64,000 nt of DNA. Source: a virus (taxonomy: Duplodnaviria > Caudoviricetes). The translations under genes were made by a program, and so were the position numbers. The stretch lies in the IMG/VR virus record IMGVR_UViG_3300020460_000012; one strand, 5' to 3'. The notes beneath the pieces were generated by a model. It was not told the origin of the DNA, made no database searches, and saw nothing but the letters and a program-made list of their open reading frames with translations. Position 1 is the stretch's first letter; each line of letters starts with the position of its first letter. Below are positions 17,515 to 64,000 of the stretch, in pieces.

Positions 17515-18115
17515 ATGTAACCTTATCCCTCATAAATGTGTTCATATAGTGAAATTTCATACTAACAAATCTTATTGTTACATCATACGGTAAAGGCTTA
17601 CCTCCTAAGCAATGATCATACAATTTGTTTCCAGTCATATGTCCTGCTTTTACATATGCGGCATCTGTAATATTATATTTTTCATCGTACAATTTACCCA
17701 TCTTATCACCAAACTTTGATACATTTTGTCCTTGTAGTTGATTGCTTCCTTTTTTACTTACATTGTCTATGTCAAATTTTCTAATCCAAAAAGCACCCCA
17801 CTTTCCTCTTTCTTCACAATCGTCTATTTGGAACTTTACAAGTTTCGATATATTTTTTATATTAGTAAAATGACTTTGATCCCGTCTTGCTAGCAAAGTA
17901 TCAGTAGTAGTCCAAGGCATATTAGGCAAGTTGTTGTTTGCAATTACTGCTTGTATTTCATCGTCATGTATAGATGCATATACATTTCTATCATCTGCAA
18001 TGTATTTTACATTTTGCCATTGTGGATCTTTTTGCAGTGAGTGTAATTCAATTTGCGTATTAATAAATTTATAAAACATTTCTTTATGTTCGAAAGTTAG
18101 TTTAACACACTTCAT
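17504..18115 (-). CDS. Hypothetical protein in the panD operon (possibly GNAT-like)
   Basis: Overlaps both neighbours; no decisive motif. Confidence 0.5.
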   Translation of the reverse strand: MKCVKLTFEHKEMFYKFINTQIELHSLQKDPQWQNVKYIADDRNVYASIHDDEIQAVIANNNLPNMPWTTTDTLLARRDQSHFTNIKNISKLVKFQIDDCEERGKWGAFWIRKFDIDNVSKKGSNQLQGQNVSKFGDKMGKLYDEKYNITDAAYVKAGHMTGNKLYDHCLGGKPLPYDVTIRFVSMKFHYMNTFMRDKVTYGS

Positions 18116-19050
18116 TAGTATCCGCCTTCATTTCTTAATACATGTTCGAAGAAAGGAGCTACAGTCCAATTTTCAGTTAATCTACCCCTATTAGGATTAT
18201 CATGGTCAACAACACCGTCGTCATTTACAGACCAATCTACTAATCGAATTAAGATAGTACCTATTCTTGTTTTATATTCAAACATTCTACTAGTCATTCT
18301 ATCGCCATCTTGCGGACCTGCTTTAACTACTCCACTACTTGTTTCAAAAATATTTTCTTTTTTTACTCCTAGTTCTTTTACAGCTAAGTCCATTAGTTCT
18401 TCCATTGAATAACTACTATCTTGCATATGTCTACCAATAAGTCCTACACTTTTCATACGAAGCACAGGTGTTATTCTATTATAAGGAGCAGTAGTATTAA
18501 AATTTATTCCACTTTTTTCTGCAAGATCAGTGAAAACTTCTACTTGTCTACGCATTGTCCTTTCATTTACACCTTTTGCAATAATTGTTCCTGTATTCAC
18601 AGGTAATCTAGCATCGAAAATATTTTTTAAAGCTCTTACTTTTGCAGTCGCCCATTTACCTTCATCTAGTATTTTATAAACTTCGTCGTCGTCTGCACCA
18701 TTCATTGAATGTAATAATAAACGCAATCCAGCATCTTTTAATTTTTGAACATATTCTGGTCTTGCTAGTTTCAGTCCATTAGTTGTTACACTAGGTCTGT
18801 GACCGTATTTTTTAACTGCGGTAATTATTTCTGGTAGATCTTCACGCATAGTAGGTTCTGCTCCGATAATACGTATGTAAGATCTAAAAGGTAATCGCTG
18901 TAAAAAATCAAATAGTTTATGTTTGTCTAAATCAGGTATATTCCGATTAGGAATATAACAGTTAGCACATTCCATTTGACATTTATGTGTAATATCAACT
19001 ACAATATTAGAAAAGGTATTGTTTTCTGGTTGAAGTTCGAAATACTTCAT
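18115..19050 (-). CDS. Radical SAM protein (MoaA-like core)
   Basis: 'CQMECANC', 'IIGAEPT', 'VTTNG'; probable start ATG 19050. Confidence 0.8.
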   Translation of the reverse strand: MKYFELQPENNTFSNIVVDITHKCQMECANCYIPNRNIPDLDKHKLFDFLQRLPFRSYIRIIGAEPTMREDLPEIITAVKKYGHRPSVTTNGLKLARPEYVQKLKDAGLRLLLHSMNGADDDEVYKILDEGKWATAKVRALKNIFDARLPVNTGTIIAKGVNERTMRRQVEVFTDLAEKSGINFNTTAPYNRITPVLRMKSVGLIGRHMQDSSYSMEELMDLAVKELGVKKENIFETSSGVVKAGPQDGDRMTSRMFEYKTRIGTILIRLVDWSVNDDGVVDHDNPNRGRLTENWTVAPFFEHVLRNEGGY

Positions 19051-19051
19051 A

Positions 19052-19750
19052 CTAGATCCAGAACTGCACTCGCCACAGTGTTCTCGATCCAGTAAAAGCA
19101 TGGCGTCTATGCATTACTCTTATATTATCGTAAATAAGGATATCATTTGGTTCCCATTGATGTTCATATATATTCTTCTCACAATGTGTAATTAAATGAC
19201 TTACATCTATATCAGTTTGTAGTGAACCAGGACTAAAGTATAAAACTTTATCTCCAGTGATATGATGTGTATGTGCAAATTTTCTTGTTTGCTTGCGTTT
19301 TTCTAGTATTCTTTTTTGTTGTTCAGTAAAACAATAGTTGTATGCATCTGGAGGAAAATAAGTACCTTCTTGATCTTCTAATTCTTGTTTGTTAGGATAA
19401 GTTTGGTATGCATCTTTCATATCTACAAAATCTGTAGTGCTTTTTTCTCCGTTTAATTTATTGTAGAGCATTGTACCAAAATAATTTCCTCTACCATAAC
19501 TCCAATCATTATGCCATTCTACATCTCCGTCTATAAAAAGATCTGTCTCACTAACAATTTGTATGGTGTTATTTTTATTTAAAACATGATTTTTTGTATG
19601 AACTAGTTTACCTAAACGTGTTGACATTTGTTCATAGTCGGCAACACTTAGAGATCGATTGCCTTTGAACACAATTAATCCGTATTTTAATAACTCTTCT
19701 TGTAAATTTAGTTTATCGAAGGCGGTGATGTCATATACTTTTGGGGTCAA
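19052..19750 (-). CDS. TauD/TfdA-family 2OG dioxygenase
   Basis: 'EWHNDWSY', 'TTDFVDMKDAY', 'WEPNDILIYDNIRVMHRR'; probable TTG start at 19750. Confidence 0.85.
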   Translation of the reverse strand: MTPKVYDITAFDKLNLQEELLKYGLIVFKGNRSLSVADYEQMSTRLGKLVHTKNHVLNKNNTIQIVSETDLFIDGDVEWHNDWSYGRGNYFGTMLYNKLNGEKSTTDFVDMKDAYQTYPNKQELEDQEGTYFPPDAYNYCFTEQQKRILEKRKQTRKFAHTHHITGDKVLYFSPGSLQTDIDVSHLITHCEKNIYEHQWEPNDILIYDNIRVMHRRHAFTGSRTLWRVQFWI

Positions 19751-61296: not shown

Positions 61297-61458
61297 TTTA
61301 AATATTCCAAGCTTTTCTGTTCTATACTTATTTATCGACTTTTTAGAGTTAACTTACCTTTTTTCGGTGATCCTTAACATACTAAATATTAGTGTAGGGA
61401 CGTTTAGCCTCTACGGTTGAACGACTTACTTCTTTAATATCCCAAAGGAGGACAATTT

Positions 61459-62184
61459 ATGGGTGCAAAACGAGCCTCTCGTAAGAGACATAACTCAAGC
61501 AATAACTACAGCAATGTAGTAGAACTCAACACATATCAAAAACAACGAAACGTTACAATAATTCCCCGAAATAAAAATCAAGAAACTTATGTTTTAAAAC
61601 TGTTAGATGACACCAAGGACATAGTCTTTGGAATCGGTCCGGCTGGTACAGGAAAAACACTACTAGCAGTTCAGGTCGCAGTAAAATTATTTAAGGCAGG
61701 CGTTATTGATAAAATTATTGTAACTAGACCAGCAGTCTCAGCTGATGAAGATCTAGGGTTTTTACCTGGTACATTAGAACAAAAAATGGCACCATGGACA
61801 AGACCTATATTCGATGTTTTAAGAGAATATTTTCAAGCAAGGGAAATAGAAGGTATGATTGATGAAGGCATCATTGAAATTGCGCCATTAGCATATATGC
61901 GTGGGCGTACTTTTAAACACAGCTTTATTTTAGCTGATGAGATGCAAAATGCTACCCCTAATCAAATGAAAATGTTACTAACTAGACTTGGCGAAGGAAG
62001 CCAAATGGCTGTAACAGGCGATTTAGCACAAGCTGATCGCTTGAATGAAAACGGCTTAATTGACTTTGCTCGCAAGCTAACAAATAGTAACCTTAGCCAT
62101 TTGGACATAGTCCACTTCGCTCAAGGAGATATTGAGCGACATCAAGCAGTTAAGGAGGTCCTGGAAATATACGGAGATGAATGA
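61459..62184 (+). CDS. phoH: PhoH-family ATPase
   Basis: GPAGTGKT, 'VTRP', 'LGFLPG', 'PLAYMRGRTF', 'ADEMQN', 'GDLAQAD'. Confidence 0.95.
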   Translation: MGAKRASRKRHNSSNNYSNVVELNTYQKQRNVTIIPRNKNQETYVLKLLDDTKDIVFGIGPAGTGKTLLAVQVAVKLFKAGVIDKIIVTRPAVSADEDLGFLPGTLEQKMAPWTRPIFDVLREYFQAREIEGMIDEGIIEIAPLAYMRGRTFKHSFILADEMQNATPNQMKMLLTRLGEGSQMAVTGDLAQADRLNENGLIDFARKLTNSNLSHLDIVHFAQGDIERHQAVKEVLEIYGDE

Positions 62185-62185
62185 A

Positions 62186-62213
62186 AATAGTGGGGGAGAA
62201 ATCCCCCACTATT
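62186..62213. terminator. Hairpin between convergent phoH and the pqqA operon (bidirectional terminator)
   Basis: Perfect 12-bp stem AATAGTGGGGGA/TCCCCCACTATT with GAAA loop. Confidence 0.75.
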
Positions 62214-62292
62214 AATCCGGAAATAGGTGTATCACTATCATAGCAAATACGATGTATGCTATACCTATAATTATAGGACTTAATTCACCCAT
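62212..62292 (-). CDS. 26-aa single-TM peptide (not in ORF track)
   Basis: MGELSPIIIGIAYIVFAMIVIHLFPD; begins just after the pqqA stop. Confidence 0.5.
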   Translation of the reverse strand: MGELSPIIIGIAYIVFAMIVIHLFPD

Positions 62293-62295
62293 CAC

Positions 62296-62367
62296 TTAGT
62301 TGCTCTTAGCATACATTGTGATTTCGAAGCCAAGTCTTATATTTTCATACGTTGGTTTTGTCCACAT
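62296..62367 (-). CDS. pqqA: PQQ precursor peptide PqqA (23 aa, not in ORF track)
   Basis: [23 protein letters not shown]: MWxKP...R(L/I)GFE-x3-Y signature; AGGAG SD 7 nt upstream. Confidence 0.9.
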
Positions 62368-62566
62368 AGTTTTTCTCCTGTGCAATTTTAAAGAGATCTT
62401 CGGCAGCACAATGTGGTGCAGACCTACAATCTCTTAGGTTTCTCTGGAATCTAAGAGGATCTATAAAGTTCATAGGTTGTGGATCATCGTAGTATTCCAA
62501 AAAATCTGTTGGGCCAGGTGTATGGCAACCGGCTAGTAAAAAACAAACTAATAAAAGTTTTTTCAT
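62345..62566 (-). CDS. Small lipoprotein
   Basis: Lipobox LLAGC. Confidence 0.65.
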
Positions 62567-62736
62567 CTAATCATCCTTTGTTGTATTTCTCTATAATTCA
62601 TGCTAACATTAGGCCTTAAACTCTGCATGAAGATATCTTGATTTCTCATAGTTTGCATAGACCAGTCTTGTGCCGACCTTTCTGGCAAATTACTACAGCC
62701 AGTTAATAAAATACATGTAAGTATTAGTCTTTTCAT
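62563..62736 (-). CDS. 57-aa lipoprotein (not in ORF track)
   Basis: MKRLILTCILLTGC lipobox; ATGA overlaps on both sides. Confidence 0.65.
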   Translation of the reverse strand: MKRLILTCILLTGCSNLPERSAQDWSMQTMRNQDIFMQSLRPNVSMNYREIQQRMIR

Positions 62737-64000
62737 TTTTCTGCTAACATCCTTTGAGCTTTTAGCTCATTGTATCCTTCCTCATCTAAGTGTGTAATTG
62801 CAAGCCAGGCATGAGTCATTTCATCTCCTGTCCTACTACCACCCATTACCCACATGTCAGGATCAGGATTGTTTGGGTTATTTGCGGTATTGTCATACCA
62901 CTGCTTCAATATAATAACTGCACCTGCAGGTATTAATGGGGCTACATGTGGTTCAAATAAATGACTGTGATGCCATGTTGCACTCCAATTAGATATTTGA
63001 CTCACAGGTTCTGTACGACCAGTTTCTGGATAAAATATTTCTAAACTAGCCGCATTCATTCTCAAATGTCCATGTGGTTGAAAGCTATCTAAACGCACAG
63101 GATGATCAAAACTGTGGAAACCTTGTGTCATATGATAGCCATGTGGAGGAATAACGATATCGTCTTGATTGCCTAGCCGATATAAACTTAAATCTTGTTT
63201 GTATTTCAGTTCTTGGCTTTCCTCTTCGCTGTATAACCAAAGTCCAATTTCCACCACGTTGTCTTTGATAACTGTACCTGGAGCCATTGTTCCTAAACCG
63301 CCAGGAAACATATGTATGTCCCAACGAACTTGTGAATTTGCAGGAAGTGTTCTGCAAACTCCTTCCGGGACAATCTCTCCCCACTTTCCCATAGCGTATT
63401 CCGTAAGCATACCTTCACGACCTCCATCAATAACTACATTAGAATTAGCATGATGAACTACAGACTTTGCATCGCCTCTAGGTTTTACTTGCACTGCTTT
63501 AATACATCTGTCTTCTGTGAGTCCTGTTGGTACTAGATGCTTGTGCCACAGATCGTTACCACTTGCTGGAATATCTATAGGAACGCTAGGAATTATTAGA
63601 TTCGGTGGACCAAAGTCTCCAGCAAAATTCCATTGGTCTGGATCAGCAAGATTAGGAGGTTGTACGACTATGTCGGTATCTCCGTATTGGGAGCCTGAGT
63701 CTACCCAAGCTACTATTGTATCTATTTCTTTTTGTGACAGTCGCCAATCACCTTGTAGGTCTTGTATGCCTATTCCGTGGTCGTAAGCATACGGAGGCAT
63801 TTCTCTACTAGCTACTTTCATTTTAATTAATGGTGCCCAAGGACGAACTTGTTCGTAGCCCTCAAAACTCATAGGGCCTATACCGCCTGGTCTATGACAT
63901 ATTAAGCAATTATTATTGATTATCTTTGCTACATCATCTGTGTAAGTTTGTGCATGCACTCCAGATGTAAAATACATCAAGCCCATAAGCACAAGTAGGT
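62733..64000 (-). CDS. Secreted cytochrome c + copper-dependent monooxygenase (PHM/DBH-like) fusion; 5' end cut by window edge
   Basis: Signal peptide (..VHA|Q), heme motif CLICH..MPP, Cu ligands HH (VVHHAN), H (DIHM), HxH (PHGH), M (DEMT). Confidence 0.8.
   Translation of the reverse strand, partial: LLVLMGLMYFTSGVHAQTYTDDVAKIINNNCLICHRPGGIGPMSFEGYEQVRPWAPLIKMKVASREMPPYAYDHGIGIQDLQGDWRLSQKEIDTIVAWVDSGSQYGDTDIVVQPPNLADPDQWNFAGDFGPPNLIIPSVPIDIPASGNDLWHKHLVPTGLTEDRCIKAVQVKPRGDAKSVVHHANSNVVIDGGREGMLTEYAMGKWGEIVPEGVCRTLPANSQVRWDIHMFPGGLGTMAPGTVIKDNVVEIGLWLYSEEESQELKYKQDLSLYRLGNQDDIVIPPHGYHMTQGFHSFDHPVRLDSFQPHGHLRMNAASLEIFYPETGRTEPVSQISNWSATWHHSHLFEPHVAPLIPAGAVIILKQWYDNTANNPNNPDPDMWVMGGSRTGDEMTHAWLAITHLDEEGYNELKAQRMLAEK

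Follow-up and report, generated by a model that had tools for sequence, protein, structure and literature searches.

An orphan pqqA gene in a marine jumbo phage genome, conserved behind genes for cytochrome c-copper monooxygenase fusions

Results

The pqqA gene and its signals

The window analysed here is the whole 64,000-nt stretch of DNA from a virus of the Caudoviricetes (IMG/VR record IMGVR_UViG_3300020460_000012). On its minus strand, an open reading frame (ORF) of 23 codons and a TAA stop lies at 62296-62367. A Shine-Dalgarno sequence, AGGAG (62375-62379, minus strand), stands exactly 7 nt 5' of its ATG, within the 3' end of the preceding gene for a 73-aa lipoprotein. An earlier note on this DNA had read the ORF as a gene for PqqA, the precursor peptide of the cofactor PQQ, with AGGAG 7 nt upstream, and had named a PqqA HMM search as a check. 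Direct reading bore out the ORF and the spacing, on the minus strand, and both curated models matched at about twice their cut-offs. The Pfam model PF08042 scored 40.0 bits (gathering score 21.1; E 3.7e-10) over profile positions 1-19 of 19, and the NCBIfam equivalog TIGR02107 scored 44.4 bits (cut-off 20; E 9.7e-12) over positions 1-19 of 21. These matches, together with the codon comparison given below, show that 62296-62367 is a genuine pqqA gene.

We also scanned with a degenerate codon pattern for W-x-x-P-x5-R-x-G-F-E-[IV]-T-M-Y, validated on known copies, which gave one match in the window and none in 100 shuffles. When the PqqA HMM was run in six frames over the whole 2.36-Mb assembly, this ORF was the sole match (E 4e-14; runner-up E 0.28). 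The 23-residue peptide contains E15-I-T-M-Y19, that is, the E-x-x-x-Y motif of the PqqA family, which was invariant in 119 of 119 viral and 26 of 26 genomic copies collected with a search pattern that itself demanded the motif. We take Glu15 and Tyr19 to be the residues cross-linked in PQQ synthesis. The conserved leader was present as W2-T-K-P5 and R11-L-G-F14, the same as in host operon copies; in PqqA peptides this leader (W-x-K/T-P ... R-x-G-F) is the part recognised by PqqD.

A scan of the operon found no promoter above the background of sigma-70-like matches. A metatranscriptome contig of 155 nt matched 62302-62455 without a difference, and other RNA-library contigs covered parts of phoH and of the monooxygenase gene; these contigs are unstranded and may reflect DNA carry-over.

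The operon and its surroundings

The first gene of the operon encodes an exported protein of 432 aa, identified by alignment and an AlphaFold (AF2) model as a fusion of a cytochrome c (CxxCH) and a two-copper monooxygenase of the PHM/DBH type (62733-64000, minus strand). Its start lies 31 nt past the window end, at C57:108632 of the parent contig, and the full gene is found at L003:16633-17931. It is followed on the same strand by ORFs for two lipoproteins, one of 57 aa (62563-62736; lipobox LLTGC) with 4-nt overlaps to both neighbouring genes, and one of 73 aa (62345-62566; lipobox LLAGC) that overlaps the start of pqqA by 23 nt. Neither gave a family match in Pfam and NCBIfam profile searches. 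The 73-aa lipoprotein had just two close homologues among 5.8 billion proteins, and in the viral contigs L011 and L020 a 45%-identical homologue occupies the same overlapping place before pqqA. An ORF that begins with GTG right after the pqqA stop (62212-62295, minus strand) may encode a 27-aa transmembrane peptide; this assignment is uncertain, and the peptide was not found in the relatives.

The phoH gene (61459-62184, plus strand; PF02562, 244 bits) is convergent with the pqqA operon. Between the two lies a G+C-rich hairpin of 12 bp (62186-62213), detected by a terminator scan and by RNA folding (z -3.9 for a 241-nt stretch), which is a bidirectional intrinsic terminator. In PHROG and Pfam searches, the region upstream of the operon contained ThyX, a ferredoxin, a T4-type clamp loader, an exonuclease, MazG and DNA polymerase pieces. 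Downstream were phoH, two virion structural proteins, a GH108 endolysin, two Rz-like spanins and an ATP-dependent protease. pqqA therefore has viral genes on both sides, and its earlier placement within an operon of auxiliary genes is supported.

The cytochrome c-copper monooxygenase fusion

We aligned 11 phage and bacterial homologues of the fusion, and the results showed that C42, C45, H46, M78, H193, H194, H240, H320, H322 and M405 were invariant. The six copper ligands (H193, H194, H240, H320, H322 and M405) are thus all retained, and so are the CxxCH motif and the distal Met. The AF2 model (pLDDT 69) matched human dopamine beta-hydroxylase (E 6e-12), rat PHM and many further PHM structures, which confirmed the PHM/DBH fold at the level of the predicted structure. 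Atlas neighbours of the fusion carry Cu2_monoox_C, and the nearest Atlas cluster is 53% viral. There were 5,657 metagenomic homologues, with no Pfam domains or informative names among the 120 matches listed.

In related phages, a second fusion paralogue, 27% identical, lies between the first copy and pqqA (L154:5256-6494, L157:5410-6654 and L018:300-1544). The two small lipoprotein genes take its place in the window.

Conservation and selection in related phages

We collected relatives of the locus through the neighbouring fusion gene. In L154-L156, which come from three samples, this gene was 90% identical to that of the window and the flanks from ThyX to phoH were the same; in L157 and L018 it was 82% identical and the flanks were different. 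In all of these loci, pqqA was directly behind one or two monooxygenase genes, and the monooxygenase-pqqA module is conserved among related phages.

Codons 1-19 of pqqA were then compared with those of relatives. The counts of synonymous and non-synonymous changes were 6 and 0 relative to L154, 8 and 1 relative to L060, and 10 and 2 relative to L026. The four codons past Tyr19 varied freely among the relatives; the peptide of the window has the tail AKSN, and the host class and the sister phages have an F-x-x-R tail. The nearly synonymous-only change in codons 1-19, together with the variable tail, indicates that the peptide up to Tyr19 is under purifying selection.

A jumbo phage genome in a bacterial bin

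The window corresponds to C57:108663-172662, on the reverse strand, of a 335,231-bp contig that is the largest in a bin of 82 contigs (2.36 Mb). The contig is about 90% coding, with long co-directional blocks and no long internal repeats, and carries 10 tRNAs, a tmRNA with the tag ANDNYAPEMAMAA and ORFs of up to 5,265 aa. A protein encoded beside pqqA recurred on further contigs, the longest of 338,594 bp. We conclude that the contig is a nearly complete genome of a marine jumbo phage. A concatemer of a phage of about 140 kb was considered and rejected, as the contig has no long self-matches. Similarity of the endolysin gene at the DNA level shows a distant relationship to the Pelagibacter phages Mosig and HTVC008M and the Methylophilales phage Melnitz. 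Positions 61400-64000 occurred at 81-100% of sampled words in 14 marine DNA runs from several studies.

The distances from the pqqA locus to the two contig ends are 108 and 225 kb. The earlier note had feared a host chimera at a contig end, and this is not the case, for the contig continues for 108 kb as phage genes. That worry is moot, since the locus has an internal position on the contig and its module is found again in independent assemblies.

The phage gene is an orphan. Models of PqqB, PqqC and PqqD had no match in the 335-kb contig or the whole bin, and a model of PQQ alcohol dehydrogenases had none in the phage contig or the rest of the bin. The only match to the PqqE model, a radical SAM gene (18115-19101, minus strand), was considered as PqqE and rejected, with 40.6 bits against a cut-off of 381. 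This gene belongs to a panD-TauD-radical SAM-ATP-grasp cluster and not to PQQ synthesis. The earlier statement that the window has no pqqB-E is therefore correct, and it extends to the whole contig and the bin. The co-location with pqqB, C, D and E that accompanies PqqA family members was absent from the phage contig and the bin, which is the expected state for an orphan viral copy.

The bin was also considered as the host and rejected, since it lacks pqqB-E and any PQQ dehydrogenase and carries the monooxygenase gene on the phage contig only. Among 30 relatives of the bin, none had PqqC above the cut-off or a close homologue of the fusion. The genus-mates of the bin have 0.9-1.8 Mb, compared with 2.36 Mb for the bin itself. 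Most likely, the phage contig was mis-binned into a bacterial MAG and inflates it. If the bin were the true host, the phage pqqA would find no machinery to feed.

Viral copies of pqqA elsewhere

We searched 50,697 phage records with the peptide by tblastn. Matches were found in Melnitz (four records), Venkman, MEP301, MEP401/402 and P19250A, mostly unannotated there. Intact pqqA ORFs of 23-24 codons with their own Shine-Dalgarno sequences could be read in Melnitz, Venkman and MEP301, and the assignment in MEP401/402 and P19250A comes from tblastn. In Melnitz (MZ577097.1), an intact 24-codon pqqA lies on the plus strand at L005:3995-4069, and the annotated 'hypothetical protein' MelnitzEXVC044M_152 (L005:3961-4056) is an antisense frame over it. 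The word pqqA is absent from the isolate papers on Melnitz, Venkman, MEP301 and MEP401/402. Two records of Acinetobacter phage MD-2021a, CAKLQF020000010.1 (144 kb) and CAKLQH020000055.1 (13 kb), had unannotated PqqA-like tblastn matches at 50% identity, and these may be phage or bacterial DNA.

A pattern scan of IMG/VR found pqqA in at least 120 contigs. All 119 loci that were parsed had an intact pqqA ORF, nearly always preceded by an AGGAG-like or AAGGA-like motif, and none had a PqqB or PqqE homologue nearby. No frameshifted or stop-containing allele was seen among these 119 viral copies. Their peptides comprised 82 of the Methylophilaceae type (..ATEMRFGFEVTMYVMNK; class I), 27 with other R-F-G-F-E forms, and 10 with the class II form of the window (..Y-E-x-[IV]-R-L-G-F-E..). 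Several class I viral peptides were letter-identical to PqqA of Ca. Methylopumilus, Methylotenera and Methylophilus, and the Methylophilaceae PqqA peptides that we looked up were of class I. The 10 class II copies belong to unrelated small phages, which carry terminase, portal or capsid genes of their own. Unrelated phages have captured pqqA repeatedly and independently.

Peptide class and predicted host

We scanned one genome per prokaryote species for class II peptides. The scan gave 26 matches, nearly all in MAGs assigned to Pseudohongiella, Pseudohongiellaceae, Pseudomonadales or Gammaproteobacteria, and in those MAGs pqqA was succeeded by ORFs of about 310, 95 and 380 aa, an arrangement like that of a pqq operon. 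Class II together with a pqq operon was found in gammaproteobacterial MAGs only, apart from three short contigs of other bins. Residues 1-19 of the window peptide were identical to the operon PqqA of the gammaproteobacterial MAG G001 (locus L128) and matched at 18 of 19 positions those of L144, L147, L152 and L134, Pseudohongiella and Pseudohongiellaceae MAGs among them. The earlier proposal to compare the peptide with candidate hosts thus yielded a core identity of 19/19, and the class match supports the PQQ-producing proteobacterial host that had been suggested.

The three contigs of other bins are L133 and L145 (both 'Methanobacteriota archaeon' MAGs) and L139 (a 'Verrucomicrobiales' MAG), with class II pqqA on contigs of 4.6-7.4 kb. 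None of them has an ORF of PqqB size directly downstream, and L145 has an ORF of 425 aa there. They are probably further mis-binned viral contigs.

Five candidate host genomes, chosen by PqqA class, were then examined. Each had PqqE above the cut-off and a single pqqA 1.4 kb upstream of pqqE. The PQQ alcohol-dehydrogenase model matched 25-52 times in each, and several of these matches exceeded the cut-off. The two genomes behind L144 and L152 (G002 and G003, about 2.0-2.1 Mb) had 46-52 such matches, which is unusually dense for their size. The phage fusion had 9-21 matches in each of the five genomes, with an identity of 64-77% in four of them (best matches 77, 72, 68 and 68%) and of 56% in G001. 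The G+C content of the phage, about 36%, is well below the 43-54% of the loci of the candidate hosts. The likely host, as predicted from the PqqA class and the fusion gene, is a Pseudohongiella-like marine gammaproteobacterium; the agreement of the fusion gene is only partly independent, because the genomes had been picked by PqqA class.

Discussion

A proposed role for phage-borne pqqA

In PQQ synthesis, PqqA is delivered by PqqD to PqqE, a radical SAM enzyme that joins the gamma-carbon of the Glu to the ring of the Tyr. The cofactor is completed by peptidases, PqqB and PqqC, at the cost of one PqqA peptide per PQQ. We consider it probable, at roughly three in four, that the gene described here is a functional phage-borne orphan pqqA that feeds the PqqBCDE machinery of the host. 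The analysis shows what the gene is, that it lies in a phage as an orphan under purifying selection, that its peptide matches the class of the candidate hosts and that the pathway in these hosts is complete; its translation, the processing by the host and the benefit to the phage are what we infer. During infection, the phage would transcribe the five-gene operon of the fusion, the two lipoproteins, pqqA and the possible membrane peptide. PqqA would be translated in the host cytoplasm, where host PqqD would bind it and PqqE would cross-link Glu15 and Tyr19. Host peptidases, PqqB and PqqC would finish PQQ, whose export would load periplasmic quinoprotein dehydrogenases.

Because one peptide is destroyed per PQQ while the enzymes are catalytic, the precursor would be the sole stoichiometric input, and only PqqA would need resupply once host transcription fades. 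The dose of pqqA would climb with phage replication, compared with a single host copy, and a gene of 72 nt would be enough for this purpose. The earlier note had likewise proposed that the phage supplies the substrate to the host machinery and had named a decoy as the alternative. Supply is favoured over the decoy by the host-identical core, the purifying selection and the repeated capture of the gene, and as a role it keeps the rank of a proposal. Points that tell against it are the AKSN tail, which differs from that of the host class, the low G+C content of the phage compared with the candidate host loci, and the absence of a PQQ pathway from the bin.

Alternative explanations

A narrower version of substrate supply, not opposed to it, is that PQQ from phage PqqA would mainly feed electrons to the phage fusion, from a PQQ dehydrogenase through c-type haem to copper, so that the phage would keep up a cycle in the periplasm that first hydroxylates and then dehydrogenates dissolved organic matter. 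In such a module, dehydrogenases would oxidise the alcohols produced by copper monooxygenases and the electrons would be returned through c-type haem, a soluble counterpart to the coupling that has been proposed for methane monooxygenase and methanol dehydrogenase. We hold this coupling to be rather unlikely, both as the main role of pqqA and as a module. It is consistent with the position of pqqA directly behind the fusion gene or genes in the window, in L154-L156 and in the differently flanked L157 and L018, with the PHM/DBH fold of the fusion and its complete set of haem and copper ligands, and with the 9-21 fusion and 25-52 PQQ-dehydrogenase matches in the same candidate hosts. However, such a neighbour is lacking in most viral pqqA copies, among them 9 of the 10 class II copies in IMG/VR, and in the hosts the two families are adjacent at a rate not clearly above chance (in G005, 2 of 19 lay less than 2 kb apart, where an estimate from gene density gives about 0.6). 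We therefore dropped this adjacency as evidence, and the support for the coupled module is the co-location in the phages.

That the peptide acts as a decoy, which would bind PqqD or PqqE without being matured and so shut down PQQ synthesis or tie up the radical SAM enzyme, appears improbable. The tail AKSN is atypical of the class and the phage carries no processing enzymes, which would fit a decoy, but all residues up to the cross-linked Tyr are the same as in a host operon PqqA, the sister phages have kept host-like tails, and many viral copies cannot be decoys, since they do not differ from host peptides in a single letter. Residues past the Tyr vary widely among functional PqqAs, which also counts against a decoy. 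It is still less probable that pqqA is a functionless passenger held by drift, either a fragment of host DNA acquired recently or an ORF that arose by chance. Its very short length and the lack of a promoter above the sigma-70-like background fit such an origin; the synonymous-only divergence of codons 1-19, the conserved Shine-Dalgarno sequence, its persistence in phages with a neighbouring gene of 82-90% identity, and the at least 120 intact viral copies do not. An artefact, in which assembly or binning joined a bacterial pqqA stretch to phage DNA, is hardly credible. The contig was indeed placed in a bacterial bin, but both contig ends are far from the locus (108 kb and 225 kb), the stretch recurs in 14 DNA runs, the gene order repeats in contigs of three other samples, and outside the phage contig the bin has no PQQ genes to act as a donor.

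Substrate supply thus remains the preferred reading, and it has several implications. Phage-borne pqqA reaches beyond phages of methanol-oxidising Methylophilaceae to a jumbo phage with a different predicted host group, and precursor supply looks like a general strategy wherever hosts need quinoprotein dehydrogenases. The peptide class serves as a compact host marker, in that 19 residues tell Methylophilaceae phages from those of the Pseudohongiella type, and here it exposed a mis-binned 335-kb genome. The gene is also one more real gene lost under ORF-length cut-offs. Its conserved link with the fusion is a testable lead on the role of the many PQQ enzymes of these bacteria. If the coupled module were true, the phage would steer a major, uncharacterised oxidation of organic matter in the ocean, both families being greatly expanded in the predicted host.

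Comparison with known systems

The earlier note knew of no description of pqqA as a phage auxiliary gene, and this claim fails. Coutinho et al. (2020; Microbiome 8:163, PMC7678222) reported a virus-encoded PqqA from Lake Baikal in the population VP_266, with a predicted infection of Methylophilaceae, and interpreted it as an auxiliary gene in support of methanol dehydrogenase. A reservoir-sediment study of 2026 (PMC13188868) again listed virus-encoded pqqA, together with pqqD and pqqE. Phage-borne pqqA as such is therefore already known, and what is new here is the peptide class, the predicted host group, the jumbo-phage carrier and the partnership with a monooxygenase.

Like the PqqA of VP_266 (PMC7678222), the gene of the window is an orphan precursor gene in a tailed phage that is read as an auxiliary metabolic gene for the supply of PQQ-dependent dehydrogenases. 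VP_266 is a freshwater phage of methylotrophs and also encodes a methanol dehydrogenase, whereas the present gene lies in a marine jumbo phage of 335 kb, belongs to another PqqA class, is accompanied by no dehydrogenase gene and is paired with the fusion. The Methylophilales phages Melnitz, Venkman and MEP301 likewise have an orphan pqqA of 23-24 codons with its own Shine-Dalgarno sequence that was missed in annotation. Their peptides are of the Methylophilaceae class, in contrast to that of the window, which is of the class of Pseudohongiella-like Gammaproteobacteria.

The phage peptide has the same length and the same Glu-x3-Tyr as the operon PqqA of Pseudohongiellaceae, with residues 1-19 identical or matching at 18 of 19 positions. 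The bacterial gene is single-copy and heads a pqq operon, with an ORF of PqqB size (about 310 aa) next to it and an HMM-verified pqqE 1.4 kb downstream, whereas the phage gene is an orphan that sits behind lipoprotein genes and has a divergent tail of four residues. Cyanophages with psbA, the gene for D1, carry the fast-turnover part of a host energy system and leave the stable machinery to the host. By analogy, phage pqqA may be compared with cyanophage psbA, with the difference that D1 is a subunit that is damaged and replaced, whereas PqqA is a substrate that would be turned into the cofactor.
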